This document shows positions 1 to 17,293 of a DNA stretch of 64,000 nucleotides, piece by piece. The stretch is from an uncultured archaeon. GTDB lineage: Archaea; Thermoplasmatota; Penumbrarchaeia; JASLWR01. The first letter of the stretch is position 1, and each line of letters begins with the position of its first letter. The DNA is taken from the NCBI GenBank assembly GCA_964430885.1, contig CAYSHM010000006.1, positions 75,803 to 139,802 on the forward strand, read 5' to 3'. The notes beneath the pieces were generated by a model. The model had not been told where the DNA came from. It was given only the letters and a program-made list of their open reading frames with translations, and ran no database searches. The position numbers and the translations under genes are program-made.

Positions 1-2439
1 ACGGCGGATACCTGGTATGTTGAGATAGTTGATGACGAAGGAACCAACGGCAAGTTCACCTCATTGGATCTGGATAACAACGGGAAACCCCATATCGCCT
101 ACCAGAAGACGGAAGGATTCGAGCTGAGATATGCTGACAAAACAGGTGCGGCTTGGGATACGGAAACCATAGAGGCGGGTGAAGCGTCCTATGGGTGGCA
201 TAACTCGATAGCGGTAGATTCTAACGGGAGACCTCATATCGCCTATTACGAGAATACCAACGGAATTCTGAAATATGCCCGCTGGACCGGTTCTCAGTGG
301 TCCATTGAACAGGTGGACCCTGCGGAATATGCAGGTAGTTACCCATCACTTGTTCTGGATGATTCCAACAATCCTCATATCTGCTATTACAGCTCCCGCT
401 GGAACTCCGATAACGGCCGGTTGAAATATGCCCATAAGACTGGTCAGGGATGGACATTGGAATTTCTGCATAATTCCACTGCCATGGGAAAACATCCTTC
501 TTTAGTGCTTGATGATGATGAGAGGCCTGTTGTGGCATATACCGATGCTGGTCAGGATGCACTCCGATTATTGAGATGGGATGATGAGGCCCCATCAGCA
601 AATGCAGGTACGGATATTGTGACCCTCCAGGGAGTGAATACAGATTTTAATGGGTCCGGATCAAGGGACAATTACGGTATTTCCAGCTACGATTGGACTT
701 TTGAATACAACGGCTACATGAAATATCTCACCGGAAAGACGCCCTACTACAAGTTCAATGATGTGGGGGTTTACACCATAACCCTCAATGTTACGGATAA
801 TGCAGGCAACTGGGATCAGGTTGTCTTCAATGTTACCGTTAATGATAATGAGCGACCTTACGCAGATGCCGGTGGCCCTTACAACGGCCCCCAGAACGAA
901 GCAGTTTATTTCAACGGCAATGTATCATATGATAATGTGGGCATAGACAGCTATACCTGGACATTGGACTACCAGGGAGCTGAAGAGGAGCTGTTTGGGA
1001 TAGATCCCTATTTTGTGTTCGGAGAAGCAGGTCAATACAACATTTCTCTCAATGTAACGGATTCAGCTGGGTTTTGGGATACTGACGCTGCTACAGTGAC
1101 CATATGGGATTCTGAGAATCCGGTGGCAGTTGCTGGGAATGACCGGACAATTGATCAAGGTGAAGGAATAACGTTTGATGGGCTTTCCAGCACTGATAAT
1201 ACGGAGATAACCGGTTATGAGTGGACCATATTCCTTGAAGGCATGGTAGTAGAGGTTTTCGGAGGAGCTACCCCCAAGTATGTTTTCAATAATGCCGGGG
1301 AATATGTGGTTTCTTTGAATGTTTCTGATTCCACCGGCAACTGGGATATTGATTCCATTACCGTGACGGTTCTGGATACCACCGACCCCACGGTTCAGGG
1401 CGAGGTTCCGGATTCGGTTCCTCAGGGGACCAGGGTGCTATTGAACGCTACGGCTAGTTCAGACAACGTGGGTATTGTGAAGTATAAATGGACCTTCAAT
1501 TACAATGGTATCTCCATGTCACTGAACACTGCTTTAGCCGAATTCACCTTTGAGATAATAGGTCTGTATGATATTGTTTTGAAAGTTGAGGATGCCGAGG
1601 GTAATTATGATACCCTGCATTTTTCATTGAACGTAACAGATACGATGTCCCCTGCAGTAGAGATCACTAGTGCCAGTCCAAAGGAGGTTAATGGCTCTCT
1701 CTATGTTTTCGATGCATCGGGCAGTTCAGATAATATGGATATTGTTCAGTATATCTGGAAGTTCAAAGACAGGGGAAATGATGTCACACTAACTGGAGAT
1801 GTTGTGGAGTATAATTTTACCAAGGGCGGAAAATACAATATCAGTCTCAGAGTATTGGATGCAGCTGGAAATGAGAACGTTTCATTTGTTGTCATATCTT
1901 ACGGGAAGGTTTCCCAGGGTGATGACGATTCTTCGTCGGATGACGATTCATCCGATGATGATGATTCAGTTTCGGGAGATAAGGGCAGTGGTGATGATGG
2001 ACCAAATTGGCTCTTGATAATAATATTATTAATGCTGGCAGCCATTATTATAGGTGTCGGAATAGTGGTAGCGGTTTATATGGTGAAGAAGAATAAAGAG
2101 GAGAAGGATGAACCGGATGATGATAGGGTAGAGGGTATTGAAGAAGCCTCTCAACCCCAATCACCCCAGGAGCTCTACGCCCAGCTTTATGGTTCTTCAC
2201 CTCCCAGGGGTCCGGGAGATTACGGAAATGAAGGAGTAGTACCTGGCCACTCAGGACCTCCTCCGGCAGAACGAAGGTCTCCTACTGCCGAACAAGCTAA
2301 GCAAAAAGCGGTTCAGCAAAAAGCAGCCGCGGAACCTGGAACTCCGCAGCAAAACCCGAATGCCGAAAAAATCGCTCCTGGTAAACCCCGATCACCTCAG
2401 GTTCCCGGCAGCAGTCCGCCTCGACCACCGAAACAATAG
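1..2439 (+). CDS. Surface protein with beta-propeller-like and PKD-like repeats, C-terminal TM anchor and acidic/Pro-rich tail; 5' end truncated by window edge
   Basis: Frame 1 is open from nt 1 into the ORF-track start at 64 (TTG). Repeated 'PHIAYY...LKYA..W' units and PKD-like 'YTITLNVTDNAGNWD' modules; Asp/Ser-rich stretch, then hydrophobic helix 'WLLIIILLMLAAIIIGVGIVVAVYMV', then charged/Pro-rich tail ending PPRPPKQ. Confidence 0.6.
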   Translation, partial: TADTWYVEIVDDEGTNGKFTSLDLDNNGKPHIAYQKTEGFELRYADKTGAAWDTETIEAGEASYGWHNSIAVDSNGRPHIAYYENTNGILKYARWTGSQWSIEQVDPAEYAGSYPSLVLDDSNNPHICYYSSRWNSDNGRLKYAHKTGQGWTLEFLHNSTAMGKHPSLVLDDDERPVVAYTDAGQDALRLLRWDDEAPSANAGTDIVTLQGVNTDFNGSGSRDNYGISSYDWTFEYNGYMKYLTGKTPYYKFNDVGVYTITLNVTDNAGNWDQVVFNVTVNDNERPYADAGGPYNGPQNEAVYFNGNVSYDNVGIDSYTWTLDYQGAEEELFGIDPYFVFGEAGQYNISLNVTDSAGFWDTDAATVTIWDSENPVAVAGNDRTIDQGEGITFDGLSSTDNTEITGYEWTIFLEGMVVEVFGGATPKYVFNNAGEYVVSLNVSDSTGNWDIDSITVTVLDTTDPTVQGEVPDSVPQGTRVLLNATASSDNVGIVKYKWTFNYNGISMSLNTALAEFTFEIIGLYDIVLKVEDAEGNYDTLHFSLNVTDTMSPAVEITSASPKEVNGSLYVFDASGSSDNMDIVQYIWKFKDRGNDVTLTGDVVEYNFTKGGKYNISLRVLDAAGNENVSFVVISYGKVSQGDDDSSSDDDSSDDDDSVSGDKGSGDDGPNWLLIIILLMLAAIIIGVGIVVAVYMVKKNKEEKDEPDDDRVEGIEEASQPQSPQELYAQLYGSSPPRGPGDYGNEGVVPGHSGPPPAERRSPTAEQAKQKAVQQKAAAEPGTPQQNPNAEKIAPGKPRSPQVPGSSPPRPPKQ

Positions 2440-2791: not shown

Positions 2792-3421
2792 TTGTCAGAA
2801 GGATTACAGTTGAGGACATTTATATTCATCGATCAGATGCAGCCGCAATTTGCAGCATATCAGGCTACTGTCGGGAGAGGTTATCTGCCAGTATCAGGTA
2901 TGGCTGCAATATATATTGAAACTGCACCCGGAATGCCCATCAATCGGGTTACGGATCTGGCATTGAAATATACAAGTGTGAGACCGGCAGAACTAATAGT
3001 GGAGCGAGCTTTTGGAATGTTGGAATTCCATCATGAATCCCAGTCCGAGGTCAGAACAGCGGGAAAAGCCGTTCTAGATGGCCTAGGTTTGGAGGAGATG
3101 GACAGATATAAACCAAAGGTTGTGACCAATGAGATAATCAAGAAAATAGATGATTACCAGTCAATGATAATCAATCGTTCCTGGAGGGGTATGATGATCC
3201 TTCATGATCATTCTCTCTTCATTATGGAGACTCAGCCTGCCGCTTATATAACCTATGCCGCAAACGAGGCCGAAAAGGCAGCAGATATCAATATTGTCGG
3301 CATCAGGGCAGCCGGTGCCTTTGGCAGGCTGTACATCAGCGGTTGGGAATCCGATGTCAGGGCCGCAGCGGATGCCGCTACGACGGCCATAGAGGGTATT
3401 GACGGTAGGGATGATTGGTAG
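2792..3421 (+). CDS. BMC shell protein, tandem-domain BMC-T (EutL/PduB-like permuted type)
   Basis: Two BMC-like halves; second half 'AAYITYAANEAEKAADINIVGIRAAGAFGRLYISGWESDVRAAADAATTAIEGI' fits the BMC fold pattern. TTG start preceded by AGGAGG at 2776-2781. Call from recalled family motifs, not alignment. Confidence 0.55.
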   Translation: MSEGLQLRTFIFIDQMQPQFAAYQATVGRGYLPVSGMAAIYIETAPGMPINRVTDLALKYTSVRPAELIVERAFGMLEFHHESQSEVRTAGKAVLDGLGLEEMDRYKPKVVTNEIIKKIDDYQSMIINRSWRGMMILHDHSLFIMETQPAAYITYAANEAEKAADINIVGIRAAGAFGRLYISGWESDVRAAADAATTAIEGIDGRDDW

Positions 3422-4190
3422 TTCCGCCGACCTAGGTGTCTTTATGGATCCCGACCGTCTCAGGACCATCGTTCTGGAGCAGGTACGGAGATATTTTCAG
3501 AACGAGGGAATGGAGTTCATTCGATATGAAAAGGATTCCGAAGAAGGATCTAAAGGTATATTGATAGTGATAAACCGAACTGATCCATCAATGGACCTTT
3601 TATTCAGCCAGATAAACAATCTGGTATCTGCTGGTCATAACATCACATTGATGAGCACCTCCGAAGTGAGGGCAATATTGGGCCAGCAGGGCTATTGGTC
3701 ACTTGACCGGATCACCTACTTGTCTATTGATGATACCCGAAAGGTCAACATGAAAATTGACGAATATTGGTCCCTGCTATTTCCGGTTATAGGTTACTCC
3801 CTGGCCGGAGAGATATCAGCCTTAAAAGATACAAATCCATTGGCGGATTTGGCTTTGACGGCCCTGCGCAGTGGATTGGATGTCGGAGTGGCAGTGGATA
3901 CCCTTGAGACTGTAGGGAAGAAGGCTCGTAGGCCAAAGCTGATCTCCGAGTCCACCAGGATACAGAAGGGCTTATCGGGAATAGGCGTGAGATTGGTAAC
4001 CCTGGAAAATATGGTCAACGAGATGTCCTTTGACAAACGGAGGTTCACAGGCCGAGTGCTGACAGAGGATATAATAAACAGCTATATGTCCCGTGGCGTG
4101 TTCGATATCAATGTGGATGAAGATACTGTGATCACGCCTTTGGCAAGGGAAAGGGCAAGGGAGTTGAACATTCGAATAAATATCATTTAG
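3411..4190 (+). CDS. BMC-locus protein of unknown function; N-terminal amphipathic helix may be an encapsulation peptide
   Basis: ORF 3399..4190 with in-frame ATG at 3411 and 3444. N-terminus 'DPDRLRTIVLEQVRRYF' is amphipathic; C-terminal 'GRVLTEDIINS...VITPLARERARELNI' loosely resembles a segment of the N-terminal domain of the DeoC fusion at 11266. No family recognised. Confidence 0.45.
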   Translation: MIGSSADLGVFMDPDRLRTIVLEQVRRYFQNEGMEFIRYEKDSEEGSKGILIVINRTDPSMDLLFSQINNLVSAGHNITLMSTSEVRAILGQQGYWSLDRITYLSIDDTRKVNMKIDEYWSLLFPVIGYSLAGEISALKDTNPLADLALTALRSGLDVGVAVDTLETVGKKARRPKLISESTRIQKGLSGIGVRLVTLENMVNEMSFDKRRFTGRVLTEDIINSYMSRGVFDINVDEDTVITPLARERARELNIRINII

Positions 4191-4238
4191 AAATTGAATT
4201 AATAGGATCAGATATCATAGATCAAGGAGTGTAAGAAA

Positions 4239-4532
4239 ATGAAATTGTGCAGAGTGGTAGGAAATGTGGTAGCCACTGTCAAGGACCGAAACATCGAGTC
4301 CTTCAAGCTGATGATAGTACAACCGGTGGATTTCAAGGAACAGAAGCCCTATGGAGAGCCTCTAGTGGCAATAGATGCGGTTGGTGCCGGCCAAGATGAG
4401 CTGGTCCTGATAGTTCAGGGAAGTTCCGGCAGAATGACCGCTATAACTGACCAGAAACCGTCCGACTGTACGATAATGGCAATTGTGGATTTTGTGACCT
4501 TAAACGGTGAACAGACCTTTGCAAAACGGTGA
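4239..4532 (+). CDS. BMC vertex (pentamer) protein, EutN/PduN/CcmL family (BMC-P)
   Basis: 97 aa; 'MKLCRVVGNVVATVK...AIDAVGAGQDELVLIVQGSSGR...AIVDFVTLNG' matches the EutN/CcmL pattern. ATG at 4239 with AAGGAG upstream. Confidence 0.85.
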   Translation: MKLCRVVGNVVATVKDRNIESFKLMIVQPVDFKEQKPYGEPLVAIDAVGAGQDELVLIVQGSSGRMTAITDQKPSDCTIMAIVDFVTLNGEQTFAKR

Positions 4533-4550
4533 TCGAGGGAGGTTTTAATA

Positions 4551-5981
4551 ATGGAGATCAGGCAGGATCAGATAAATAATATTGTGGATGAGATAGTTAG
4601 AAGAGTGGAGCTGGATATGAGCTATGGGAAACCGAACATGGGGCCAGCCAAGCAGGGAGGCACTACAGGTATCTACAGCACTATTGACGAGTGTATTGAG
4701 AAGGCGAAGAAGGCAAGAAAGTTTTTGATGTCAATGTCATTGGATCAAAGGCAGAAGCTGATAGATGCCATGAAAGGGGAGATATTGCAGAACGCAGATC
4801 CTCTGGCCAAGCTTGCTGTTGAGGAGACTGGATTGGGTCGGTACAAGGACAAGGTGAATAAGAACATTCTGGCTGCGACAAAGACCCCTGGATGCGAGGA
4901 CCTGCAGACTGAAGCCCAGACGGGCGACGACGGTCTCACACTGTACGAGATGGGGCCCTTTGGAATTATAGCTTCCATAACACCTACTACCAATCCCACG
5001 TCAACGATCACATGCAACTCCATCGGCATGATCGCTGCTGGAAACGCTGTTGTGTTCAATCCCCATCCGAGGGCTACCAAGACCAGTCTGGAGACCATAA
5101 GACTGCTGAACCGGGGTATTCAGTCGGCAGGAGGTCCTACTGATCTTATAACAACGGTTAAAAAACCAACAATTGACACAAGCCAGGCTCTTATGAACCA
5201 TAAGGAGGTCAATCTACTCTGCGTAACCGGCGGTGAAGGAGTGGTGCATTACGGTCTTACCAGAGGGAAAAAATGCATTGCAGCAGGTCCGGGAAATCCT
5301 CCTGTTTTCGTGGACGATACCGCTGATCTGATACGGGCGGGCAGGGATATTGTGGACGGAGCCAGTTTTGACAACAATATCCTCTGTATAGCTGAAAAAG
5401 AGGTTCTGGTATTCGAAAATGTGGCAGATAGGCTAATCTCTGAGATGAGGAAACACGGTGCACATCTGGTCAGCGGAAAGGAGATAGACCGGCTGATAGA
5501 TTTGGTATTCAATGATCCCTCGGGAGAGATCCCCCTGGTGAACACCAAATGGGTGGGTCAGGATGCAGGTAAGATACTGCGGAACATAGGAATAACCGAT
5601 AAGTTCAATGCGCGATTGATCCTTGCCGAGGTTCCTCACGATCATCCATTCGTGCTGGCTGAAATGCTAATGCCAATACTGCCCATAGTTAGGGTGAAAT
5701 CCATAGATGAGGCCCTTAAAATTGGTCTGAGAGCCGAACATAGATTCAGACATACCGCAGCTATGCATTCCACAAATGTGGACAATATGACCAAGGTGGG
5801 ACGGGCAATGGAAACCACAATATTCGTTAAGAACGCTCCATCCTATGCAGGTCTGGGTTTTGGAGGTGAGGGATACTGCTCCCTTACAATAGCCGGACCA
5901 ACCGGTGAAGGAGTTACAAGGGCGAGGAATTTTGCCAGATTGAGAAGATGTACGCTCAAGGATTCATTCAGAATTGTGTGA
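4551..5981 (+). CDS. CoA-acylating aldehyde dehydrogenase (PduP/EutE-like) with N-terminal encapsulation-peptide-like helix
   Basis: 476 aa; catalytic-Cys region 'DNNILCIAEKE', 'GPFGIIASITPTTNPT'. N-terminal 'QDQINNIVDEIVRRVEL' amphipathic helix followed by linker. GAGGGAGG upstream. Confidence 0.85.
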   Translation: MEIRQDQINNIVDEIVRRVELDMSYGKPNMGPAKQGGTTGIYSTIDECIEKAKKARKFLMSMSLDQRQKLIDAMKGEILQNADPLAKLAVEETGLGRYKDKVNKNILAATKTPGCEDLQTEAQTGDDGLTLYEMGPFGIIASITPTTNPTSTITCNSIGMIAAGNAVVFNPHPRATKTSLETIRLLNRGIQSAGGPTDLITTVKKPTIDTSQALMNHKEVNLLCVTGGEGVVHYGLTRGKKCIAAGPGNPPVFVDDTADLIRAGRDIVDGASFDNNILCIAEKEVLVFENVADRLISEMRKHGAHLVSGKEIDRLIDLVFNDPSGEIPLVNTKWVGQDAGKILRNIGITDKFNARLILAEVPHDHPFVLAEMLMPILPIVRVKSIDEALKIGLRAEHRFRHTAAMHSTNVDNMTKVGRAMETTIFVKNAPSYAGLGFGGEGYCSLTIAGPTGEGVTRARNFARLRRCTLKDSFRIV

Positions 5982-6028
5982 ATAATAATCGATAATAAAT
6001 ATTTCAGTCCAGCAGATCAGGTGAAAAA

Positions 6029-7390
6029 ATGGCTTCATTGGGAACGGATATGGTAAGGAACTCGGGGATAATAGGTGCGGGTGGTGCAGGTTTTCCTACC
6101 CATGTCAAGCTGGCAGCTAAGGTTGATTGTGTAATAGCCAATGGTGCCGAATGTGAACCCCTTCTCAAGGCGGATAAGCAGCTCATGGAGCATTTCCCTG
6201 AAAAAATACTGGATGGTATGAAAGCAGCCATGGATATGACGGGAGCCCAGAAAGGTATAATAGCTCTAAAGAGAAAGTATGCGGATGCGGTGTCCTCCTT
6301 CAGAACTCGATTGGCGGATGCTGTGAACGGTAGATATGAAGGAATATCCATATTTGAACTTGAGAACTTCTATCCTGCAGGCGACGAACAGGTCATGGTC
6401 TATGAAGTGTTAGGACGGGTAATTCCCGAAGGCGCCATACCATTGTCAGCAGGTGTTGTTGTGGACAATGTGGGGACCCTGGCCCAAATATCGGAAGCCA
6501 TTGAAGGAAAAAATGTTACCCATCGGTGGGTAACGGTCACTGGTGAAGTGGCCTACCCAAAGACCCTTTACATCCCTATAGGTACTTCTATAGAAAAGAT
6601 GCTTGGATTGTGCGGGGGTCCGACAATAACCAATTACAGGATATTATCCGGAGGTCCCATGATGGGACGTCTAGTAAACCTTACCGATAGTGTTCTGAAA
6701 ACCACCTCGGGTATCATAGTTTTCCCGGCAGATCATTATGTTGTGAAGGCTAAAACCCGCCCGGTGGAAGTGAATGTTAGGTATACTTTAGCGGCATGCA
6801 TTCAGTGCAAAATGTGCACTGATGTATGTCCCAGATTCAATCTGGGTAAGTATGTATGTCCGGACAGTGTGATGAAAGGCATCGCTTACGGAATACTTTC
6901 AAAACCGGAGGATATGACCACCGCATTCCTCTGCGTTGAGTGCGGATTATGCACCCATTACGGATGCCCTATGGGTTTGGACCCCTGCGGTATGATGGGG
7001 AAGGTCAAATCCGAACTTATTTCCGAAGGTATGACGAACCCACATTCAAGGACGGATCTGTCTGCCAGGGAATACAGGCCTTTCAGAAAGGTTCCCCTAA
7101 AAAGATTGATGGCCAGGATGGATCTTTTGAGATATGATGTACCGGCACCCATGGAGCTGAAGGACCTATCGAAGGTTATTACAGAAGTGAATATCCCTCT
7201 TAAACAGCACATAGGCGCGCCTTCGAAACCTGTTGTGAAAGTGGGAGATCAAGTGAAGAAGGGTGAACTGATAGCAGATATTCCAAAAGGTTCTCTGGGG
7301 GCACGGTATCATTCCAGCATTAACGGTGAAGTAACAGGTGTGGATTCCTGCATCAGTATTAGAGCAAAGAAAATCGGAGGAATTGAATGA
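6029..7390 (+). CDS. PduS-like RnfC-family Fe-S flavoprotein (electron-transfer partner of PduT)
   Basis: 'GIIGAGGAGFPTHVKLAAKVDCVIANGAECEPLLKADKQLM' nucleotide-binding motif; two Cys clusters 'CIQCKMCTDVCP' and 'CVECGLCTHYGCP'; PduS-type C-terminus. Confidence 0.8.
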   Translation: MASLGTDMVRNSGIIGAGGAGFPTHVKLAAKVDCVIANGAECEPLLKADKQLMEHFPEKILDGMKAAMDMTGAQKGIIALKRKYADAVSSFRTRLADAVNGRYEGISIFELENFYPAGDEQVMVYEVLGRVIPEGAIPLSAGVVVDNVGTLAQISEAIEGKNVTHRWVTVTGEVAYPKTLYIPIGTSIEKMLGLCGGPTITNYRILSGGPMMGRLVNLTDSVLKTTSGIIVFPADHYVVKAKTRPVEVNVRYTLAACIQCKMCTDVCPRFNLGKYVCPDSVMKGIAYGILSKPEDMTTAFLCVECGLCTHYGCPMGLDPCGMMGKVKSELISEGMTNPHSRTDLSAREYRPFRKVPLKRLMARMDLLRYDVPAPMELKDLSKVITEVNIPLKQHIGAPSKPVVKVGDQVKKGELIADIPKGSLGARYHSSINGEVTGVDSCISIRAKKIGGIE

Positions 7391-7944
7391 GAGAGTCTAT
7401 AGGTCTCATGGAGTTCAACAGCATTGCAAAGGGTATTGAGGTGACGGATGTTCTTCTGAAGGCTTCCGAGGTGGAACTCATATTCTCATCGCCGGTGTGT
7501 CCTGGAAAGTATCTGATAATGATCTCTGGTGAGGTGGAGGCTGTTAAGAATTCACTGGGAAAAGGAGCCGACATATCGGATGGTTTCCTCATCGATCAAA
7601 GTGTAATACCTCAGGTTCATGAAAAGGTGTTCCCAGCCATAGCTGGGACCACACTGCCCGAGGTGATGGGGGCCATTGGTGTCATAGACTGCTATTCTTC
7701 GGTTTCGGCAGTAGTGGCAGCCGATAAAGCGGTGAAATCCGCCGATGTAGATCTGCTGGAGATTCGATTGGCCAGGGCGTTGGGAGGAAAGGCCTTTGTC
7801 ATAATAACAGGTGAGGTTGCCGATGTGAGGGCAGGTGTCGATAACGGAGTTGAGTCCATAAAGGAACACGGACTGCTGCTGGGCACAGTGGTAATTCCGT
7901 CCCCCCACCAGGACCTACTGGAAACGTTGATAGGATCGAGATGA
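7387..7944 (+). CDS. PduT-like tandem BMC-T shell protein with conserved Fe-S ligand Cys38
   Basis: 185 aa, two BMC domains; 'SIAKGIEVTDVLLKASEVELIFSSPVCPGKYLIM' parallels PduT '[34 protein letters not shown]' as recalled. Start ATG overlaps PduS stop (ATGA). Confidence 0.85.
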   Translation: MRESIGLMEFNSIAKGIEVTDVLLKASEVELIFSSPVCPGKYLIMISGEVEAVKNSLGKGADISDGFLIDQSVIPQVHEKVFPAIAGTTLPEVMGAIGVIDCYSSVSAVVAADKAVKSADVDLLEIRLARALGGKAFVIITGEVADVRAGVDNGVESIKEHGLLLGTVVIPSPHQDLLETLIGSR

Positions 7945-8041
7945 TCAGATCATAAATTCATATCACGATTAATTAAATTAATTAATTGATGAATAATTTG
8001 AAGAATATAATCAAGAAGATGAAAAATAGAAGTTGATTGAA

Positions 8042-8548
8042 ATGAGAATTTGCAGGGTAATAGGCAATCTGGTATCCACATGCAAGATACCTGATCACGA
8101 AGGTTTCAAGATACTGGCGGTTCGTGCTGTCGATCTTCACGGCAGAATGCATGGTGAGACCTTTCAGGCTATAGATTGCGCCCAGGCAGGTGTGGGTGAT
8201 TTTGTGCTCGTGATAGAGGAAGGAGGCTCCTGCAGTCAGGTGATGAGCGGAGTTAAGTCGCTAACCCCCAAGGGTGACCGGGTGGCAGTCAACAAGTCCA
8301 TTCTTGCTGTTGTGGATTATATTGAGGCTGATGGAGAGCTCAGAAGGCTGGAGCAGACAGCAGAGATGGAAGAGGATGGAGGAAAGAAAAAATTAAGAAG
8401 TACCAAGGTTAAAAGAAAGACCTCCAAGGCTACTGGAAAAAAGGGTAAAGAAAAAAAAAGTGAAAAAACGTCAGGAAAAAATTCCCGCAAACCTGCTAAA
8501 ACCTTGGCAACAAAGAAAGGCAAGGGCGGTAAGAAGAAGAAGGGTTGA
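8042..8548 (+). CDS. BMC vertex protein (EutN/CcmL family) with about 60-aa lysine-rich C-terminal extension
   Basis: 'MRICRVIGNLVSTCK...AIDCAQAGVGDFVLVIEEGG' BMC-P core, then tail 'GKKKLRSTKVKRKTSKATGKKGKEKKSEKTSGKNSRKPAKTLATKKGKGGKKKKG'. ORF-track start 8033 is TTG; first ATG at 8042. Confidence 0.8.
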   Translation: MRICRVIGNLVSTCKIPDHEGFKILAVRAVDLHGRMHGETFQAIDCAQAGVGDFVLVIEEGGSCSQVMSGVKSLTPKGDRVAVNKSILAVVDYIEADGELRRLEQTAEMEEDGGKKKLRSTKVKRKTSKATGKKGKEKKSEKTSGKNSRKPAKTLATKKGKGGKKKKG

Positions 8549-8554
8549 TAGATT

Positions 8555-9469
8555 ATGTCAGAAGACGAGCTCAGAAAGTTAGTAGAAAACATGGTTCGAT
8601 CCATGCTGGAATCCGGTTCTGTGGAGATACAGAAGGGAACTGCTCTAAGGACCCAGGGAGATATCTCAAGGCCTACCAACAATTATTTTAATGATCAGAT
8701 GGAGGGTAATGCCCGGTATGTGGTTGCAGCCAATTGGAAGATGAACATGACCACCATAGAGGCCAAGGAATTCGCTATGCAGATAAGGGCCTTAGGAGAG
8801 GAAATTTCCAATAGTAAAAGGGATGCAGTGGTCTGTCCTCCTATTTATTTGGCTCCTCTTCTGAAAACAGCGTTCATGGGGACGGGTATCCGGTTGGGCG
8901 GTCAGAATATGCACCATGAGACCAAGGGTGCTTATACCAGCGAGATATCGCCTCTAATGCTTAAGGATGCGGGTTGTCAATATGTGATAATTGGACATTC
9001 TGAAAGGAGACATATATTTGGTGAAAAGGACCATCATATCAATATGAAGGTGAGGTCAGCTTTCAATCATGGCCTTGTACCTCTTTTCTGCGTTGGCGAG
9101 ACCGAGAAGGAACGGGAGAGCAATGCTACCTTCAGGGTTGTCAGGAAACAATTGAAATTGGGCCTCTATAAGACAAGCTCCAAGCAATCCGGCAGGCTGA
9201 TAATCGGTTATGAACCGGTTTGGGCAATAGGCACTGGGAGAAATGCTACTCCGGCTGACGCCCAAAGGGTACATGCATTCATCAGGGAGGTTCTGACGGA
9301 GATCTACGATTTCCCCACGGCCAAGAATATCAGGATTCTCTACGGCGGAAGCGTTACACCTGATAATGCTTCAGGTCTTATAGCCAAAAAAGATATCGAC
9401 GGTTTCCTGGTGGGGGGTGCTTCTCTCACCGCTTCCAAGTTTATGAGCATAGCGGAGGTGTGCAAATGA
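8555..9469 (+). CDS. tpiA: Triosephosphate isomerase, bacterial type, with about 50-aa N-terminal extension (putative encapsulation peptide)
   Basis: 'AANWKMN', 'IGHSERR', 'YEPVWAIGTG', 'YGGSV' motifs. N-terminal 'EDELRKLVENMVRSMLE' amphipathic helix precedes the catalytic core. Confidence 0.85.
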   Translation: MSEDELRKLVENMVRSMLESGSVEIQKGTALRTQGDISRPTNNYFNDQMEGNARYVVAANWKMNMTTIEAKEFAMQIRALGEEISNSKRDAVVCPPIYLAPLLKTAFMGTGIRLGGQNMHHETKGAYTSEISPLMLKDAGCQYVIIGHSERRHIFGEKDHHINMKVRSAFNHGLVPLFCVGETEKERESNATFRVVRKQLKLGLYKTSSKQSGRLIIGYEPVWAIGTGRNATPADAQRVHAFIREVLTEIYDFPTAKNIRILYGGSVTPDNASGLIAKKDIDGFLVGGASLTASKFMSIAEVCK

Positions 9470-9945
9470 GCCAGGATATGAGGAAGATATTGATAGGTAG
9501 TGATCACGGGGGATTTGAGTTAAAGGAGATTATTAGACAGTTCCTCAAGGACCAGGGATACCGGGTTGTTGATTTTGGTTGCTATTCGCCGGACCCTGTT
9601 GACTATCCAGATATTGCCTTTTTGGTCTCTCAGGGGGTGTGTTCGAATCCTAATTCAATTGGTATAATGATAGATGGGGTAGGTGTTGCCAGTACAATGG
9701 TTGCAAACAAGATTCCCGGGATCAGGGCCGCCCTTTGCTGGAATCAGTTCAGCGCACACAATGCACGTGAGCACAACAATGCAAATATGCTCGTCCTAGG
9801 GGGTAGGGTAATCGGTGATATATTGGCCAGGAGCATTGTGAAGGAATTCCTGGAAACAGAATTTGCCGGCGGACGGCACGCACGGAGGGTAGACAAGATA
9901 ATGGCGATTGAAGCCAAATATCTGAGGTCTATTCAGGAAAAATGA
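9466..9945 (+). CDS. rpiB: Ribose-5-phosphate isomerase B (RpiB/LacAB family)
   Basis: 'KILIGSDHGGFELKE', 'MLVLGGRVIG', 'FAGGRHARRVDKI'. ATG at 9466 overlaps tpiA stop (ATGA); alternative ATG at 9478. Confidence 0.8.
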   Translation: MSQDMRKILIGSDHGGFELKEIIRQFLKDQGYRVVDFGCYSPDPVDYPDIAFLVSQGVCSNPNSIGIMIDGVGVASTMVANKIPGIRAALCWNQFSAHNAREHNNANMLVLGGRVIGDILARSIVKEFLETEFAGGRHARRVDKIMAIEAKYLRSIQEK

Positions 9946-10047
9946 GTTAAAAGTTAACAGAGTTAGGATAAATTTATTAGTTCAGTGTAATAATAATATA
10001 AAACTTAATAATATAGAGTTGAGAGACGAATCTTGAGGAGTGAACCA

Positions 10048-10335
10048 ATGTATATCGGTAAAGTAATGGGAACCGTGGTGGCCACAAGGAAGATAGATAC
10101 CCTTAAAGGGATCAAACTGCTCCTAATACAGCCCTTGGATGATGATATGAAACCCTCGGGAAGGTTACTGGTGGCCGGGGATGCCCAGGGAGATACAGGA
10201 GAAGGTGATGTGGTATATTTGGTCACCAAGAAGGAAGCCTGTTTCCCCTTCGGTGGTCTGACCCCCCTTGATCACGCTGTGGCGGGTTATATTGATGATT
10301 ATCATATTGAAGAATCTTTAAAAGAGGGGAAATAA
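10048..10335 (+). CDS. BMC vertex protein (EutN/PduN/CcmL family), third paralog
   Basis: 'MYIGKVMGTVVATRKIDTLKGIKLLLIQP...LVAGDAQGDTGEGDVVYLV'. ORF-track TTG start at 10033; first ATG at 10048 after GAGGAG. Confidence 0.8.
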   Translation: MYIGKVMGTVVATRKIDTLKGIKLLLIQPLDDDMKPSGRLLVAGDAQGDTGEGDVVYLVTKKEACFPFGGLTPLDHAVAGYIDDYHIEESLKEGK

Positions 10336-10640
10336 GCATAACATGGACACTGCGGACAACCATCCAAGGCTCTATTTACCTGGAAGAAATATTTGGACAG
10401 TAAATAATAATATAGGAATAAGGTAAGATTAGTGTGTTAATTTAATCCTGTTACCAGGATGTGAATTCATAATAGTATTGGATAGGGCATGGGTATGAGT
10501 AAAGGTAAAAAGCAATAGATGAAAAATTCGAAATCAGCTATTGAAATGTATAATCAATCAAAAATTATTGAGAAGTAGTAGTCAAGGATTATTACAATGG
10601 AGATACATTGAATCCAAAACAAATCAAGGAGGAAAAATAA

Positions 10641-10934
10641 ATGAGAGATCTACAGAAAATTGCATTGGGAATGATTGAGACAAAGGGAGAGATAGGAGCT
10701 ATAGAAGCTGCAGATGCCATGGTAAAGGCAGCCAAAGTGACCCTTATCGGAAAGGATTTCGTCGGCGGCGGCTATGTGTGCGTTATGGTCAGGGGAGAGG
10801 TTGGGGCTGTCAAGGCGGCAATAGACGCCGGTGGAGCCGCTGCAGCCAGGGTCGGAGAGCTTGTCTCAGTTCACGTTATTCCCAGGCCCCACGAGGAAGT
10901 AGAGGATGTTCTGCCTTCCATTGATAGGGATTAA
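10641..10934 (+). CDS. BMC hexamer shell protein (BMC-H, PduA/EutM/CcmK-like)
   Basis: '[26 protein letters not shown]...[33 protein letters not shown]' matches the canonical BMC-H pattern closely. AAGGAGG upstream. Confidence 0.9.
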
Positions 10935-11265
10935 AGTAATACTGCATTAAATTGTTATTTGCAGGGATGGGCTGAAATATTCGCCTGCTCCCTTAGAGAA
11001 CAGGATTTGCATTTGGAGATTTATCCTCAAAATAATAATGATATTCTTTTAGGAAGATCATCTGAATGTTTTATCCTGCAATTTACTCAATAGGATTAAA
11101 TCGAATTGATATCTATGGTGATCATGAAAGCAAAGGCCATATGTCAATTACTTCCAGATTGAAATGCGGGTAGTATTGTTACCTTTGATATCAAGATCCG
11201 GGATATGGAATGTATGGCCTAAACACCACGAAAAAATTCAAGAATAGTGATAATGAAGTGATACA

Positions 11266-12705
11266 ATGGAAAGGGAGGAAGCGATCAAAAGGATAACCGA
11301 AGAGGTTCTTGCAAGAATTAGGGGCGCATCTTCGGGTAATTCTTTGAATACCTCACAGGGATCTGCCGCGGATCAATCCGAAAAGGGACGGAGTGCACCT
11401 TATTTAGCCTCTGGGGGAAAATCCATTATTATGATACTCAGCGGAGACCGGACTATTGAGGATCTGAGAGAGGACATCAGTTCCATATGCAGTAGCCAGA
11501 AGGTTGAAATGATAGTGGTATCCGATTGGGCTCTTAGGTCCTTCAACATCTTTAAACTCAAGGGTTTAGCTCCTGGGATAAAACTGCTCCAGGAGGGGGA
11601 CATATTGGGCAGCAAGACAATATCAGACATCTTATCAGACGTTGACTCGGTCTATGTTCTCGACCTGGATATTCCCAGTGCTTCGCGTATTGCAGATTTT
11701 GCTCCAGTGCTGCCTGCTGAAAGGGTTATCACAGGGGCAATTATTTCCGGTAAAAGCGTTATCTGTTCACATGCACTTCTGAGCCCAATGGCAGGGGAGC
11801 TAACTCCTCCATGCGCCCGTGAGGCCATTTCCGCAGTTGAGAAGAAGCTCGTGGCCGTCGGTGTTGCCATGCTTGGTTCGGGGACTTCTTTCAGTGATAA
11901 TGAAGCAGTGGAACAGGCCCTAGCCCGCTGCCCGGCGGGTGAAGGAGAATGTATTGGATGCGGATTGTGCGTGAACCTGAACACAGCAGGCGTGGAGAAC
12001 ATCTTTTCAGCCGGAGCCCAGAGGATTAGTACGGCTACCGGATTGGATACCCCCAATCCAGATATGGCTCGTATGATAGATCACACGCTGCTGAAACCCG
12101 CTGCCACAGAGGATGATATCCGGGAGCTATGTGATGAGGCTAGAAGATACAATTTCGCTACGGTATGTGTTAATCCATCCCATGTAGCCCTTGCAGCAAG
12201 GGAGCTGAGAGGAACGGATGTTGGTATCACCACTGTCATCGGTTTCCCCCTGGGAGCAACAACCCATACCGCAAAGTCCATTGAGACCCGGGATGCAATA
12301 GCCAATGGCGCCAATGAGATAGATATGGTGGTTAACGTTGGCGCTCTGAAGGCTGGCAACGATGATCTGGTAAAAAGGGATATTGCGTCAGTGGTGAACG
12401 CTGCAGGCAATGATGCTATTGTCAAGGTGATTCTTGAGACCTCTCTGCTGAATGACGAGGAGAAGGTCAGGGGCTGCCTGCTCTCAAAGATGGCCGGGGC
12501 GGATTATGTGAAGACATCCACTGGTTTTGGTCCTGGCGGCGCTACCGTAGAGGATATCCGCTTAATGAGGCAGACTGTGGGCCCAGATATGGGGGTTAAG
12601 GCCTCTGGAGGGATCAGAAATACAGACGATGCCAATGCCATGCTTGAAGCAGGTGCTTCAAGGATAGGTGCTAGTGCTTCAGTTGCCATTGTTAAGGGCG
12701 CATGA
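11266..12705 (+). CDS. deoC: Deoxyribose-phosphate aldolase (DERA/DeoC) fused to about 265-aa N-terminal domain of unknown function with Cys cluster and encapsulation-peptide-like N-terminus
   Basis: C-terminal 'IDHTLLKP...VCVNP...[12 protein letters not shown]...VKASGGIR' are DeoC hallmarks. N-terminal '[15 protein letters not shown]' amphipathic helix; Cys cluster '[14 protein letters not shown]'. Confidence 0.85.
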
Positions 12706-12818: not shown

Positions 12819-14678
12819 ATGAATGAAAAAGACCTCCAAAGGGACGATGGTCCCGCTACAGGGAATACCATGGAAAATGAAGAGGAGTTTTCATACACTT
12901 CCGGTGAAATAACCGGCAAATCTCCCATGGAGCAAACTCTGGATCAAGGTCTTCAATTTCTCGAATACCTCCAAAAGCGGAAGGAAACATACAGGGCGGT
13001 CAAACTATATTTTCATAATGACATGGACGGTTTTGCTTCCTCACTTCTTGTGAACCATCTCCTGACAAAGATCGGTTATGAAATTCCTCTGGAGAACATA
13101 CACCCCTTGGCTCATGTCAACCTGAATAATGTGGCAATAGATGAACAGCATCTATTTTTCTTTGTAGATATACGGCCCCCTAGCTCAGCTTTCAAAGAAT
13201 CAAGTCTGGCGGGAGAGGATAGACCTTTCATGGAAAATGTTTTCTGTGTGGATCATCACACAACCCTGGATTCACCCCTTTCACCCCATGCGAATTTCTT
13301 TCTTTACAACTATGAGATCGATGATATTCTTCCATCCACTGCCACCTTCCTGATGTATTATCTTGTAATGCTTGAGAAAGGGATCAGGGGAACCTACGGT
13401 GCCCTCATGAGGGAATGGATGACGAACCCCCCCATGAACACAAGATATCTTCTGCTACAGGCCACCATTGCTGATCATCTTCATCTTCTGTCGGAAAAGC
13501 TACCCAATAATCCCCTGAGGTATCTATCCAACCTGCTTATTGAGGATATGGATGCCTATGTGCTCCTATCAATAACCACCTCACTGCTGCTGGGAGGGGA
13601 CGGCGGACATATGGATATGTTCAGGCAACTATATTCCGAAGCCCTGGGGAATATCAATCAGGAATTAATGGCCCAGAAATTAGAGAACAATCTTTCTCAG
13701 GTACTTTCGCTTTTTGAATTCGTGGATATTCTCATGAAGAAGCGTAAGGAATTCATCGATGATATGGCCAAGGATATGGATGGGGAGATCCAGAGAACAG
13801 AAGCTGGGATCAGCGGAATGACGGATACCCTGAATAACTATAACACCGCAGCCGATAAGATCAAGGAGGAACTCTCATTCCAGAATATAGCTATGGGGAA
13901 ACTGAAGGATCTTCGAAATGATTACATGGGTATCAGGGAGCAGATGACGCGTTTAGAGAACCAGATAGGTATTGAGTTGGGAAGGCTTGAAAAACAGAAA
14001 GTTCTCAGATACCATCTTGTGGCTGAAGGAGACATCAATTTATCAGTTTTCCTGCCACCCCAGAACAATGATCAGGTTAGAGGCATACTGTCATCACTTC
14101 TATTTTATCACGGTAATAACAACATCATCATAGAGGAGAAGACATCCAAGGCCGTGTGGAGTTCAAGGGGTTATGAGGGAAAGGAATTGGAAAGCTTCCT
14201 GACAACAGTATCGGTGGACATGGAGAAATTGATGGAACTGAAGGAACATCAGGAGGCGGTGGAGGAATTTAAGGGAGATCCAACCATAATTGAGAAGCTT
14301 GAATTGGATGAGAGGTCCCCTCCTTTGATATCTGTGGAGAACCGATATATCGGACAGATGGGTGGCAGGAGTAGGATATTCGGCGGTATCATTACCAGCA
14401 ATGTCACCCTTGATGCTAGCACTTTGGTTCAAGACAGAGGAGGTAATGAACTACAGTCCATACTTACGGTTCCTCACCAGCGGTTCTGGATATCAACTAT
14501 ACAAGCAATAAAGGAAAAATTCAAGGAGAGCCAGTGGTTCACAGTACAGGTGGAAGGGGGTGCAAGCTTGGGCGAGATACTCTCAGACCAGTGGGAGCTG
14601 CTGCTGATGCATTTCATGGGCAATAGGATGTCATACAGGATTTTTGAACTGAAAAGCAATGGTCAAGATGGCATCTGA
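12819..14678 (+). CDS. DHH-family phosphoesterase-like protein with central coiled-coil
   Basis: 'HNDMDGFAS' and 'VDHHT' resemble DHH motifs I and III of RecJ/NrnA-type phosphoesterases; rest unassigned. Confidence 0.45.
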   Translation: MNEKDLQRDDGPATGNTMENEEEFSYTSGEITGKSPMEQTLDQGLQFLEYLQKRKETYRAVKLYFHNDMDGFASSLLVNHLLTKIGYEIPLENIHPLAHVNLNNVAIDEQHLFFFVDIRPPSSAFKESSLAGEDRPFMENVFCVDHHTTLDSPLSPHANFFLYNYEIDDILPSTATFLMYYLVMLEKGIRGTYGALMREWMTNPPMNTRYLLLQATIADHLHLLSEKLPNNPLRYLSNLLIEDMDAYVLLSITTSLLLGGDGGHMDMFRQLYSEALGNINQELMAQKLENNLSQVLSLFEFVDILMKKRKEFIDDMAKDMDGEIQRTEAGISGMTDTLNNYNTAADKIKEELSFQNIAMGKLKDLRNDYMGIREQMTRLENQIGIELGRLEKQKVLRYHLVAEGDINLSVFLPPQNNDQVRGILSSLLFYHGNNNIIIEEKTSKAVWSSRGYEGKELESFLTTVSVDMEKLMELKEHQEAVEEFKGDPTIIEKLELDERSPPLISVENRYIGQMGGRSRIFGGIITSNVTLDASTLVQDRGGNELQSILTVPHQRFWISTIQAIKEKFKESQWFTVQVEGGASLGEILSDQWELLLMHFMGNRMSYRIFELKSNGQDGI

Positions 14679-17009: not shown

Positions 17010-17288
17010 ATGAAGTTGCCAAGAAGGATAAAAACGTACTGTCCGTTCTGCAAGGTCCACACGGAGCATAAGGTGGAAAATGTGAAGAAGAAGAAGGCTT
17101 CTGAGCTGAAATGGGGACAGAGACGTTTCAGAAAGGTAATGAGAGGGTACAGGGGATTTCCCAGACCCAAACCCGAAGGCAGGGAAAAACCAACCAAAAG
17201 AATATATCTACGAAAAAGGTGCACCCAGTGCAATAAAGCTCATCAGAGCAAATGTTTCAGATCAGGGAAATTTGCGTTCAAGGATTGA
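17010..17288 (+). CDS. rpl44e: Ribosomal protein L44e (eL42)
   Basis: '[15 protein letters not shown]...KRCTQCNK' zinc-ribbon ribosomal protein pattern; archaeal/eukaryotic-specific. Confidence 0.85.
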
Positions 17289-17293
17289 TAATT

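Follow-up and report, generated by a model that had tools for sequence, protein, structure and literature searches.

The window, a 64,000-nucleotide stretch of DNA, encodes a microcompartment vertex protein, here called Pb, that carries a polycationic C-terminal tail. On balance we lean towards reading Pb as a P3-type vertex pentamer of an archaeal sugar-phosphate-utilisation (SPU) microcompartment to which a tail that binds nucleic acid has been added, and by analogy with known vertex proteins a nucleic-acid-binding handle is the most likely role of the tail. This is an incremental finding and not a new kind of system, and its functional part is what we infer.

The Pb reading frame opens with an ATG at 8042 and closes with a stop at 8546-8548. 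Its translation carries exactly the strings that the original prediction had quoted for a BMC vertex protein with a lysine-rich C-terminal tail, and the vertex assignment is borne out by a match of the EutN_CcmL family (PF03319) to residues 1-92 (52.2 bits, with a cutoff of 25; E 8.8e-14). In the PDB the closest sequence is that of BMC-P 5v74 from the shell of Haliangium ochraceum (E 3.8e-7). In an AF2 model of Pb, taken from a run with a 17-sequence alignment, the core has a pLDDT of about 80 and the inserted loop one of 52-60, and the predicted OB-like BMC-P fold matches solved vertex proteins; when the model was compared with the PDB by Foldseek, the top 45 matches were all BMC-P (EutN, CcmL, 5v74, GrpN, CsoS4), with E values down to 3.5e-6. 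Alignment also places a loop insertion of ~9 residues, specific to the Thermoplasmatota orthologs, at about residues 64-85 of the domain. By domain, fold and locus, Pb is a genuine BMC-P vertex protein, and we would expect it to form pentamers and to occupy vertices. Canonical bacterial BMC-P proteins (EutN, CcmL, CsoS4, PduN and H. ochraceum BMC-P; 5v74, 2qw7, 2hd3) share this domain and fold, but are about 80-110 aa long and lack a long basic tail. The best solved relative, the H. ochraceum shell pentamer, belongs to the Myxococcota, the proposed donor lineage.

The neighboring genes place Pb in a metabolic context (Table 1). One BMC-H (H), the tandem-domain proteins Ts and Tdp, three BMC-P genes (P), AldDH, DERA, RpiB, TPI and an RnfC-like protein lie on one strand within 10 kb. 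The shell H and P genes, DERA (PF01791) and AldDH (PF00171), by which Du et al. call such an operon complete, are all present, and by its gene content the locus is a full SPU microcompartment operon. The 263-aa protein has no Pfam match; its place in the operon is the same in relatives and in Hodarchaeales. The TPI extension, MSEDELRKLVENMVRSMLES, is conserved among relatives and is likely an encapsulation peptide. A Pfam search of the operon genes and other large ORFs for PduL/PTAC (PF06130) gave no match. Downstream of the operon are L44e, S27e, eIF2-alpha and PAC2, with Cbf5 (DKCLD+TruB+PUA) on the same contig. This arrangement with archaeal ribosomal genes is syntenic in Thermoplasmatota MAGs, including the JASLWR01 MAG ETNP2_MAG_1 (JASLWR010000064.1), where the synteny extends through the four downstream genes. 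The host is thus archaeal and the compartment is therefore an archaeal microcompartment, a point missed in the original prediction.

Table 1. Features of the microcompartment operon and of the tailed vertex protein Pb.
Feature	Coordinates	Strand	Basis and remarks
BMC-T tandem-domain shell protein, CsoS1D-like (Tdp)	2792..3421	+	Pfam BMC; orthologs carry PF27545 CsoS1D_N
Conserved 263-aa protein of unknown function	3399..4190	+	Weak TIGR02536 eut_hyp match, E 0.0019
Pa, vertex paralog (P1-type), 97 aa, no tail	4239..4532	+	Pfam E 1.8e-27; clade with Hodarchaeales P1, 100% bootstrap
Aldehyde dehydrogenase (AldDH), signature metabolosome enzyme	4551..5981	+	Pfam Aldedh E 2.6e-37
RnfC/PduS-like Fe-S flavoprotein	6029..7390	+	Pfam Complex1_51K, SLBB, Fer4_17, RnfC_N
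BMC-T, single-layer tandem BMC (Ts)	7387..7944	+	Pfam BMC, two stretches, E 2.1e-43
Pb, tailed vertex protein (P3-type BMC-P), 168 aa plus stop	8042..8548	+	ORF, translation
Pb EutN/CcmL domain and conserved C-terminal strand, residues 1-105	8042..8356	+	Alignment with 10 orthologs and 2 paralogs
Pb short acidic linker EQTAEMEEDG, residues 103-112	8348..8377	+	Translation; AF2 helix predicted at 103-111
Pb polycationic disordered tail, residues 113-168	8378..8545	+	Composition; AF2; charge-hydropathy
Triosephosphate isomerase (TPI) with ~55-aa N-terminal extension	8555..9469	+	Pfam TIM residues 56-302, E 2e-88
Ribose-5-phosphate isomerase B (RpiB)	9460..9945	+	Pfam LacAB_rpiB E 6.9e-54
Pc, vertex paralog (P2-type), 95 aa, no tail	10048..10335	+	Pfam E 5.9e-18; reciprocal BLAST; clade 100% bootstrap
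BMC-H hexamer shell protein	10641..10934	+	Pfam BMC E 9.4e-27
Deoxyribose-phosphate aldolase (DERA) with ~260-aa N-terminal extension	11266..12705	+	TIGR00126 deoC E 6.2e-86, residues 267-476

Two ways in which the tail could be illusory had been raised beforehand, a frameshift or sequencing error and a true stop near residue 110. The translation has no in-frame stop near residue 110. A false extension through a frameshift or homopolymer error, for instance in the A9 run at 8451-8459, would suit the several A6-A9 runs within the tail DNA and the two alternative frames, both of which reach stops within ~15 codons of the tail start. However, the identical 168-aa protein is present on seven contigs from four sources (NCBI, JGI, ENA and Logan), and an independently assembled Logan contig of SRR8062321 equals the window at 100% identity over 6,507 nt. 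The reading frame runs unbroken from the conserved domain into the tail, and the tail stop codon lies 6 nt before the TPI start; with the tail removed, the Pb-TPI spacer would be an atypical 170 nt, compared with -38 to +62 nt in relatives, which counts against an artefact. The closest ortholog also has an in-frame basic tail. On these grounds we rejected a frameshift or sequencing error as the source of the tail, an explanation that is unlikely to the point of being hardly credible.

The tail, put at roughly 60 residues and 40 percent lysine in the original prediction, measures 56 residues and 41% Lys. It contains 23 K, 3 R, 2 E, 0 D, 9 G, 6 T and 5 S, giving 46% K+R and a net charge of +24. 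The suggested disorder prediction agrees with an unstructured extension, as the tail falls on the disordered side of a charge-hydropathy plot (H=0.28, R=0.43) and is modeled by AF2 as coil with no secondary structure, mostly at a pLDDT below 50. The tail DNA is 75% purine, and merely 3-5% of its shuffles are stop-free in frame. Among stop-free dinucleotide shuffles, at least 23 Lys were reached in 0.09% and a net charge of +24 or more in 4.5%, and the two acidic residues observed compare with ~5 expected. Because so few shuffles reach this Lys content, it exceeds what the DNA composition yields, and the tail is more than chance.

Some properties of the DNA itself bear on how the charge is read. 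A-rich purine DNA gives basic peptides whatever the frame, which is a caveat on the tail charge, and frame 2 of the tail DNA is likewise basic. When stop-to-stop segments of at least 60 aa in all six frames of the window were scanned for K/R-richness in 40-aa windows, the tail frame held the second-richest. Those richer than or equal to the tail fall in frames that are probably not genes; one that equals it belongs to a 341-aa minus-strand ORF of unknown function near 25308. TRF at a minimum score of 30 found no tandem repeat in the tail DNA, and internal tandem duplication was rejected as the tail's origin.

Three EutN/CcmL genes were detected in the window by Pfam, as the original prediction had stated. 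The number had been thought unusual, a view that does not stand, because three P genes are the norm for the SPU type, both in Myxococcota BMCs and in Hodarchaeales AMCs (e.g. locus L016). A tree built on the vertex domains separates three conserved paralog clades, each with 100% bootstrap, and places Pb in the P3 clade, also at 100%. Reciprocal BLAST gives Pb 83/75 bits to Asgard P3 vs 45/29 bits to Asgard P2. By the same two approaches Pc is the ortholog of the tailed Asgard AMC-P2, and it follows RpiB, as P2 does in L016. The tail of Pb is thus on a P3-type paralog, whereas Asgard tails are on the P2-type.

The first report of archaeal microcompartments dates only from late 2025, in a preprint that describes the SPU type, including in the Thermoplasmatota order JASLWR01 (Du et al., bioRxiv 2025, PMC12747264). 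There, 58 of 66 Hodarchaeales AMC operons fuse a K/R-rich IDR of 36-137 aa to AMC-P2, and K/R-rich tails of archaeal vertex proteins proved in pull-downs to bind both DNA and RNA. According to the authors, no fusion of an IDR to a pentamer has been observed in BMCs, and one of their central claims is that K/R-rich disordered vertex tails, as a nucleic-acid-binding shell surface, are a Hodarchaeales innovation; the IDR analysis in the main text is limited to Hodarchaeales (PMC12747264). In length and K/R charge the Pb tail falls within that class of IDR. Asgard P2-type tails of at least 30 aa, a set that also takes in a few tandem double-EutN proteins, have a median of 67 aa, 23% K, 8% R and a net charge of about +0.2 per residue, with up to 48% K.

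The likeness between the two systems is close. Both are archaeal SPU-type operons with DERA, AldDH, an RnfC-like protein, RpiB and three P genes, and in both a C-terminal disordered basic tail on an EutN/CcmL protein would bind nucleic acid at the shell surface, which for Pb is presumed by analogy. They differ in host, Asgard in one case and Thermoplasmatota-like in the other, and in the paralog that carries the tail, the P2-type protein of the window being tailless. The Pb tail is K/G/T/S-rich with 2% Pro, while the Hodarchaeales tails are K/R/P-rich and often repetitive, and tails occur in 88% of Hodarchaeales operons compared with one long and one short tail among 10 Pb orthologs. Unlike the Hodarchaeales operons, that of the window has Tdp, a single H, TPI and no PTAC. 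In the extra Tdp, single H, three P and lack of PTAC it resembles the JASLWR01 operons (Du et al. 2025, PMC12747264), but the JASLWR01 Pb ortholog is a 120-aa protein that ends ...SNGQTLPKSEV, with no basic tail.

The search for basic-tailed homologs that the original prediction had proposed was partly successful, with hits to the Asgard P2-type tails and to a 14-aa in-frame basic tail on the closest Pb ortholog (79% identity, locus L002), but nine of 10 Pb orthologs (57-79% identity) have no basic tail. Scans for more tail variants gave two loci in GTDB species genomes and one in JGI metagenomes, all of which lack it, and the long tail is known from one population. A HMMER search of 1.84 billion representative proteins, in which the Pb orthogroup is collapsed to a single representative, found no tail of similar Lys-richness in the 150 nearest BMC-P representatives, where C-terminal extensions are short or moderately basic (e.g. 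P0109, P0040). Several long matches in this search resemble frameshifted or fused gene calls. At locus L012 a 75-aa mixed-charge and probably helical module has been added to the P2-type protein instead. Judged from these alignments the Pb tail is lineage-specific and not a family trait, an aspect that had been missed before.

The three closest relatives indicate where the tail came from, with lengths of 0 (L015), 14 (L002) and 56 aa (window). In L015 the corresponding DNA does not code: it is a spacer of 93% purine, which continues in frame past the stop as EEGKGREKREGRKKRKGRDN and shares homology with the DNA that encodes the L002 tail. By this comparison, the tail has a lineage-specific origin in purine-rich DNA upstream of the TPI gene. 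The difference in paralog (P3 vs P2), the nine orthologs with no basic tail and the L015 spacer together show that the Pb tail is young and independently acquired, and the latter two, together with its composition, do not support common descent with the Hodarchaeales tails. Since polycationic tails are carried by different paralog clades, they arose at least twice, which argues for selection.

We propose the following for the tail as a nucleic-acid-binding handle. Pb would assemble as a pentamer at shell vertices, and each occupied vertex would therefore bear five tails and about +120 charge. The tails would be displayed on the cytosolic face of the shell. BMC-P termini in 5v74 are said to face outward, and the Strep-II tag that Hagen and colleagues put on BMC-P in 2018 is reportedly C-terminal. 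The tagged BMC-P pulled down intact capped shells, indicating that pentamer appendages are externally accessible (Hagen et al. 2018, PMC6056538). In the literature outside the 2017 shell-structure paper, no outright statement of a cytosol-facing BMC-P C-terminus turned up, and the tagged pentamer is indirect evidence for it. Once exposed, the tails would bind polyanions with no sequence specificity, most plausibly DNA or RNA, and so could couple a deoxyribose-5-phosphate-catabolising compartment to nucleic acid. In such a compartment DERA would produce acetaldehyde and G3P, and AldDH would convert the aldehyde to acetyl-CoA, with TPI and RpiB also taking part. Against this reading, the tail is labile in evolution, and a peptide of +24 would attach just as well to chromosomal DNA, RNA and ribosomes of the host itself. 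The "DNA capture for food" role that Du et al. suggest (PMC12747264) is likewise inferred.

One alternative is that the tail, instead of serving DNA catabolism, anchors the organelle to the nucleoid or to RNA so that it is positioned and inherited. Microcompartments would then ride along on the chromosome, or on cytoplasm rich in RNA and ribosomes, being spaced and partitioned at division, with the tail as a one-protein substitute for the ParA-type McdAB positioning of carboxysomes. This needs the same property as the nucleic-acid handle, non-specific polyanion binding, and the cytosolic DNA within reach of a vertex tail would overwhelmingly be the cell's own chromosome. Positioning of BMCs on the nucleoid is established for carboxysomes (McdAB; PMC8359340). 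The likeness is conceptual, a microcompartment coupled to chromosomal DNA, with no homology claimed: McdAB is a two-protein ParA-type ATPase system whose adaptor McdB binds the shell, whereas in Pb the shell protein itself carries a DNA-binding-like tail as a direct fusion, and Pfam found no ParA/McdA-like gene in the window's operon. However, relatives with no basic tail retain the operon and hence the organelle, which makes the tail dispensable for inheritance, and we regard positioning as an unlikely main role.

The L015 spacer also means that the tail could be both young and in effect neutral, an extension generated by a stop-codon shift or by expansion of the purine-rich tract upstream of TPI and tolerated, with no selected function, on account of its disorder and its direction away from the shell. 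The graded tail lengths of the closest relatives and the confinement of the long tail to one population would fit such a history, as would the L015-L002 homology, given that purine-rich DNA seldom holds stops and encodes K/R/G/E. Against neutrality stand the rarity of 23 Lys among the shuffles and the depletion of acidic residues. In addition, a functionally tested analogue arose independently in Asgard archaea on the other paralog, and five +24 tails per vertex would probably not be inert amid cytoplasmic polyanions. Taken together, we consider a purely neutral tail improbable.

A broader and more tentative extension of the nucleic-acid handle, which we think possible but doubtful, is that evolution has repeatedly used the C-termini of vertex pentamers as a docking site in archaeal microcompartments, with selection specific to archaeal hosts for coupling the organelle to nucleic acid. 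Two archaeal phyla would each have evolved polycationic tails of their own, on different paralogs, and the purine-rich spacer of L015, the 14-aa tail of L002 and the 56-aa tail of the window would represent successive stages of such a birth. If so, the coupling would serve substrate supply or nucleoid-based inheritance, and the natural series of tail lengths would allow function to be tested. Independent of this extension, the three closest relatives constitute a compact natural experiment on tail function. The window presents the same solution as in Hodarchaeales in a Thermoplasmatota-type archaeon, on another vertex paralog and with close relatives that have no basic tail. It thereby offers independent support for the usefulness of a basic vertex tail, and it shows that such a tail is no Asgard peculiarity linked to eukaryogenesis.

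Could the tail instead face the lumen or aid assembly, by recruiting acidic cargo or cofactors or by neutralising charge at shell closure? In engineering work, cargo has been loaded electrostatically into BMC shells (PMC6787980), and an acidic linker precedes the Pb tail. We nevertheless find this very improbable, as BMC-P tags are accessible on intact shells (PMC6056538), the cargo already has amphipathic encapsulation peptides (the TPI N-terminus), and 280 tail residues at each of twelve vertices would be expected to crowd a small lumen.

Charge-based tethering to the acidic tails of giant surface proteins, raised in the original prediction, held up in its topology and not in its link to the compartment. 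In each of four large proteins (64-2439, 19427-24034, 28167-32378 and 32546-36757), an acidic tail of ~90-160 aa comes after a C-terminal TM helix and, placed there, is probably cytoplasmic, which makes the tether topologically possible. Yet their genes share neither orientation nor an operon with the BMC locus, acidic tails in the cytoplasm are a generic feature, and no co-variation was seen, with the same neighborhood and operon kept in relatives whose vertex protein has no basic tail; such a tether therefore strikes us as far-fetched.

The basic tail of the window's vertex protein Pb is an independently evolved case of the recently described K/R-rich disordered vertex-protein tails in archaeal microcompartments. 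Pb begins at an ATG that agrees with the MR(L/I)CRV start common to all orthologs, and its residues 1-92 match EutN_CcmL in Pfam (PF03319; E 8.8e-14, 52.2 bits versus a cutoff of 25). The best solved sequence relative is 5v74, the Haliangium ochraceum shell vertex pentamer (E 3.8e-7, residues 3-101). In an AlphaFold2 model using 17 homologs the beta core has a pLDDT of ~80, and all top 45 PDB matches of the model in Foldseek are BMC-P proteins (EutN, CcmL, 5v74, GrpN, CsoS4). A short acidic helix at residues 103-112 (EQTAEMEEDG) precedes the 56-residue tail, GGKKKLRSTKVKRKTSKATGKKGKEKKSEKTSGKNSRKPAKTLATKKGKGGKKKKG, which contains 23 K, 3 R, 2 E and 0 D (41% Lys, net +24). On a charge-hydropathy plot the tail lies far inside the disordered side (H 0.28, R 0.43, boundary 0.57) with the domain on the folded side, and the model renders residues 112-168 as coil with pLDDT mostly <50. 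The original prediction, made from sequence alone, gave an accurate description; its observation is confirmed, and its interpretation is partly supported. Thermoplasmatota P3-type proteins, Pb among them, also have in common a ~9-residue loop insertion (SQVMSGVKSLTPKGDRVAVNK) that is missing from the other paralogs, Asgard P3 proteins and 5v74, and that has low pLDDT in the Pb model.

A sequencing error or frameshift, raised in the original prediction as a possible source of the tail, is most improbable, since the same 168-aa protein occurs without differences on 7 contigs (NCBI, JGI, ENA, Logan), a Logan assembly of SRR8062321 equals the window at 100% identity across 6,507 nt, and the closest Pb ortholog, P0002 (79% identity), also has an in-frame basic tail, VPKKIKKGRGKSRK. 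The tail is in unbroken frame with the conserved domain, and its stop lies 6 nt upstream of the triosephosphate isomerase (TPI) start. A accounts for 50% of the tail DNA and G for 25%, and 3-5% of shuffles of this DNA remain stop-free. Among stop-free dinucleotide shuffles, 23 Lys were reached in only 0.09% and a net charge of +24 in 4.5%, which shows codon-level organisation of the tail beyond base composition.

Features of the window (operon genes, 2792-12705, are all on the + strand)
Feature	Position	Strand	Remark
Large surface protein	64-2439	+	runs past window start
CsoS1D-like tandem BMC-T	2792-3421	+	
Conserved unknown protein	3399-4190	+	263 aa; without Pfam match
BMC-P Pa	4239-4532	+	
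Aldehyde dehydrogenase	4551-5981	+	
RnfC/PduS-like Fe-S flavoprotein	6029-7390	+	
BMC-T	7387-7944	+	
BMC-P Pb, tailed	8042-8548	+	ORF, 168 codons + stop
Pb loop insertion	8231-8296		Pb residues ~64-85
Pb tail tract	8378-8548		
TPI with amphipathic N-terminal extension	8555-9469	+	
TPI extension	8555-8720		~55 aa
RpiB	9460-9945	+	
BMC-P Pc	10048-10335	+	
BMC-H	10641-10934	+	
Deoxyribose-phosphate aldolase (DERA)	11266-12705	+	TIGR00126, E 6e-86
DERA N-terminal extension	11266-12060		~260 aa
Weakly RecJ-like DHH protein	12819-14678		619 aa; directly 3' of DERA
L44e, S27e, eIF2-alpha, PAC2	17010-19260		
Large surface protein	19427-24034	+	
TatD-family DNase	24111-25031	+	
Glutamate-rich protein	27334-27897	-	187 aa
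Large surface protein	28167-32378	-	
Large surface protein	32546-36757	-	
Cbf5	47167-48174		
dCTP deaminase/dUTPase-like	61334-61852	-	

The operon is a sugar-phosphate utilisation (SPU) metabolosome. Archaeal genes follow downstream, with L44e, S27e, eIF2-alpha and PAC2 at a distance of 4-6 kb and Cbf5 farther away, and the BMC locus belongs to an archaeal genome. Thermoplasmatota MAGs (L003-L006), for example ETNP2_MAG_1 (JASLWR010000064.1), show synteny for the operon together with L44e, S27e, eIF2-alpha, Nop10 and PAC2, and this conservation of the whole arrangement rules out a chimeric contig. The archaeal nature of the microcompartment had been missed in the original prediction; the class was first reported in a November 2025 preprint. 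Several operon proteins have features of their own. The conserved unknown protein weakly matches TIGR02536 'eut_hyp' (E 0.0019) and is kept between Tdp/H and P1 in Thermoplasmatota and Hodarchaeales operons (239 aa in the Hodarchaeales locus L016). The TPI extension opens with an amphipathic segment, MSEDELRKLVENMVRSMLES, and has a conserved counterpart in relatives (MDDRELRGMVEKMVRDALAS); it probably serves as an encapsulation peptide that brings TPI into the shell. In the DERA extension there is a CIGCGLC-type cysteine motif along with a weak NuoI-like match (E 0.085); a flavoprotein fusion has been described for Hodarchaeales DERA.

SPU-type "archaeal microcompartments" (AMCs) were described in Hodarchaeales and noted too in the Thermoplasmatota order JASLWR01 and a DPANN lineage (Du et al., bioRxiv, Nov 2025; PMC12747264). 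JASLWR01 operons carry an additional Tdp, have one fewer H and lack PTAC (PMC12747264), and the gene content of the window is exactly this. Three P genes occur in Myxococcota BMCs and Hodarchaeales AMCs (PMC12747264), so three paralogs are normal for the SPU type, contrary to the earlier premise that three pentamer genes are unusual. In 58 of 66 Hodarchaeales operons a K/R-rich intrinsically disordered region (IDR) of 36-137 aa is fused to AMC-P2, and DNA and RNA are bound by full-length P2 and by the isolated IDR, but not by IDR-less P2 (PMC12747264). Among Asgard P2-type tails with a length of 30 aa or more, the medians are 67 aa, 23% K, 8% R and 11% P, with ~+0.2 net charge per residue; these values are approximate because the set takes in a few tandem double-EutN proteins; Lys reaches a maximum of 48% in P0204 (Hodarchaeales). 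In charge and length the Pb tail belongs to this class. Asgard tails are often repetitive (KPKPSSVP...), whereas the Pb tail is spaced by Gly/Thr/Ser, contains a single Pro and lacks repeats, which fits a separate origin. Two tandem EutN/CcmL domains are present in several matches of 200-290 aa (P0186, P0234, P0246, P0261, P0273, P0278), which may be fused double-BMC-P proteins or merged gene calls.

Three retrieved Asgard loci were used to compare paralogs. L016, a complete Hodarchaeales operon, reads CS+PTAC, H, DUF, P1 (96 aa), AldDH, RnfC-like, H, Ts, RpiB, P2 (180 aa, tailed), P3 (96 aa), DERA, acetate kinase; L010 has a tailed P of 227 aa followed by P0171 (101 aa), and L009 one of 147 aa followed by P0165 (100 aa). 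By reciprocal BLAST, untailed Pc scored 79 and 89 bits against the tailed P2 of L010 and L009 versus 42 and 41 bits against the untailed P3 proteins P0171 and P0165, whereas tailed Pb scored 45 and 29 bits versus 83 and 75 bits. A neighbour-joining domain tree (97 columns, 200 bootstraps) resolved three clades with 100% support each: P1 (window Pa, JASLWR01 Pa, Hodarchaeales P1), P2 (window Pc, Thermoplasmatota Pc proteins, tailed Asgard P2 proteins) and P3 (tailed Pb, Thermoplasmatota Pb proteins, untailed Asgard P3 proteins, one Myxococcota protein). Synteny agrees, with P2/Pc after RpiB in the window and Hodarchaeales operons. Together this places the window tail on a different paralog (P3-type) from the described tails (P2). 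In a P2-type profile search, which also returned many matches without an organism name, source-named matches 39-52% identical to Pc were Asgard (Hodarchaeales, Heimdallarchaeota, Promethearchaeota) and 119-227 aa long, so most are tailed; matches 62-77% identical (one named Thermoplasmatota) were 94-100 aa, with the sole exception of P0174 (163 aa).

The basic tail is absent in 9 of 10 Pb orthologs (57-79% identity), which end 4-15 residues past the conserved ...GEL.R(L/F)(D/E) strand. The distance from Pb stop to TPI start in relatives is -38 to +62 nt, so the ~165 extra nt of the window are added DNA and do not stem from read-through of a long spacer already present. In locus L015 (75% identity) the gene stops at ...EKNE* and is followed by a 60-nt spacer (L015:804-863) that is 93% purine and would read in frame as a K/R/G/E peptide, EEGKGREKREGRKKRKGRDN. 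Homologous DNA lies within the ORF in L002 (79% identity; L002:990-1043), giving a 14-aa basic tail, and the window tract is ~3x longer and entirely coding. No tandem repeat was detectable in the Pb tail DNA. From this series of three taxa, the tail may have been born from a purine-rich TPI gene leader, or have decayed into such a leader in L015. A P2-type protein in a 70%-identical relative (L012:4298-4789) carries a 75-aa mixed-charge C-terminal extension, ...EEDVRVAKEIYRNNKGRAAWTEMLKRFGSRRGKLVKDKMEAE, probably partly helical, unlike a K-rich IDR; its presence shows that in these archaea vertex C-termini are labile. The lability of the Pb tail and its origin in purine-rich DNA make a young neutral extension a serious, if unlikely, rival to a functional tail. 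Compared with Hodarchaeales AMC-P2 tails, the window tail is in a different phylum, on a different paralog and with an unusually clear trace of origin. It weakens the claim that vertex tails are Hodarchaeales-specific and strengthens the case for their being adaptive, and with its relatives it supplies experiments with a natural series of tail lengths. No new type of system is revealed, and nucleic-acid binding is a putative function.

The 12 vertices of an icosahedral shell are capped by BMC-P pentamers, and in 5v74 the C-terminus reportedly points outward. Intact capped shells could be affinity-captured through a Strep-II tag on BMC-P (PMC6056538), indicating that pentamer appendages are reachable from outside. 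We infer that each Pb-occupied vertex would show five +24 tails to the cytosol, and that these would bind polyanions, nucleic acids above all, like the Hodarchaeales analogues shown to do so by experiment. The entry substrate of the compartment is deoxyribose-5-phosphate; because this is a DNA breakdown product, coupling of the compartment to DNA is a coherent, unproven role. The DHH protein, whose match lies far under its cutoff, and the TatD DNase are compatible with this role and are not evidence for it. On our analysis, a genuine polycationic tail that points outward and binds nucleic acid is the best explanation and a somewhat probable one, and the predicted binding could serve substrate capture or nucleoid/RNA tethering. 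Nucleoid hitch-hiking for positioning and inheritance, which would share this biochemistry but serve another purpose, has about as small a chance as the neutral extension. A lumen-facing role is very unlikely. So is the earlier idea of charge tethering to giant surface proteins: their acidic tails come after a C-terminal TM helix and hence are probably cytoplasmic, but nothing further connects them to the vertex protein.

The product of the gene 3' of DERA has an N-terminal DHH/archaeal-RecJ-like match that is weak (NF053576, E 4.4e-7, 29 bits versus a cutoff of 360). The protein keeps this position in relatives (~600 aa there, no Pfam match recorded) and is perhaps an operon-linked phosphoesterase or nuclease of divergent sequence. 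The TatD gene, 10 kb beyond it, and the dCTP deaminase/dUTPase-like gene are common housekeeping genes, yet they bear on the proposed supply of deoxyribose-phosphate from deoxynucleotides for SPU compartments. The four surface proteins reach 1,535 aa, and in each the C-terminal TM helix is followed by a presumably cytoplasmic acidic tail of ~90-160 aa; a hydrophobic segment is likewise present at the N-terminus of the three complete proteins. Two surface proteins that look unrelated share the terminal motif PPRPP(R/K)Q, perhaps a common C-terminal recognition signal. The glutamate-rich protein has ~50 residues of almost pure glutamate and then a C-terminal zinc ribbon (CPKCGS...CSNCG).
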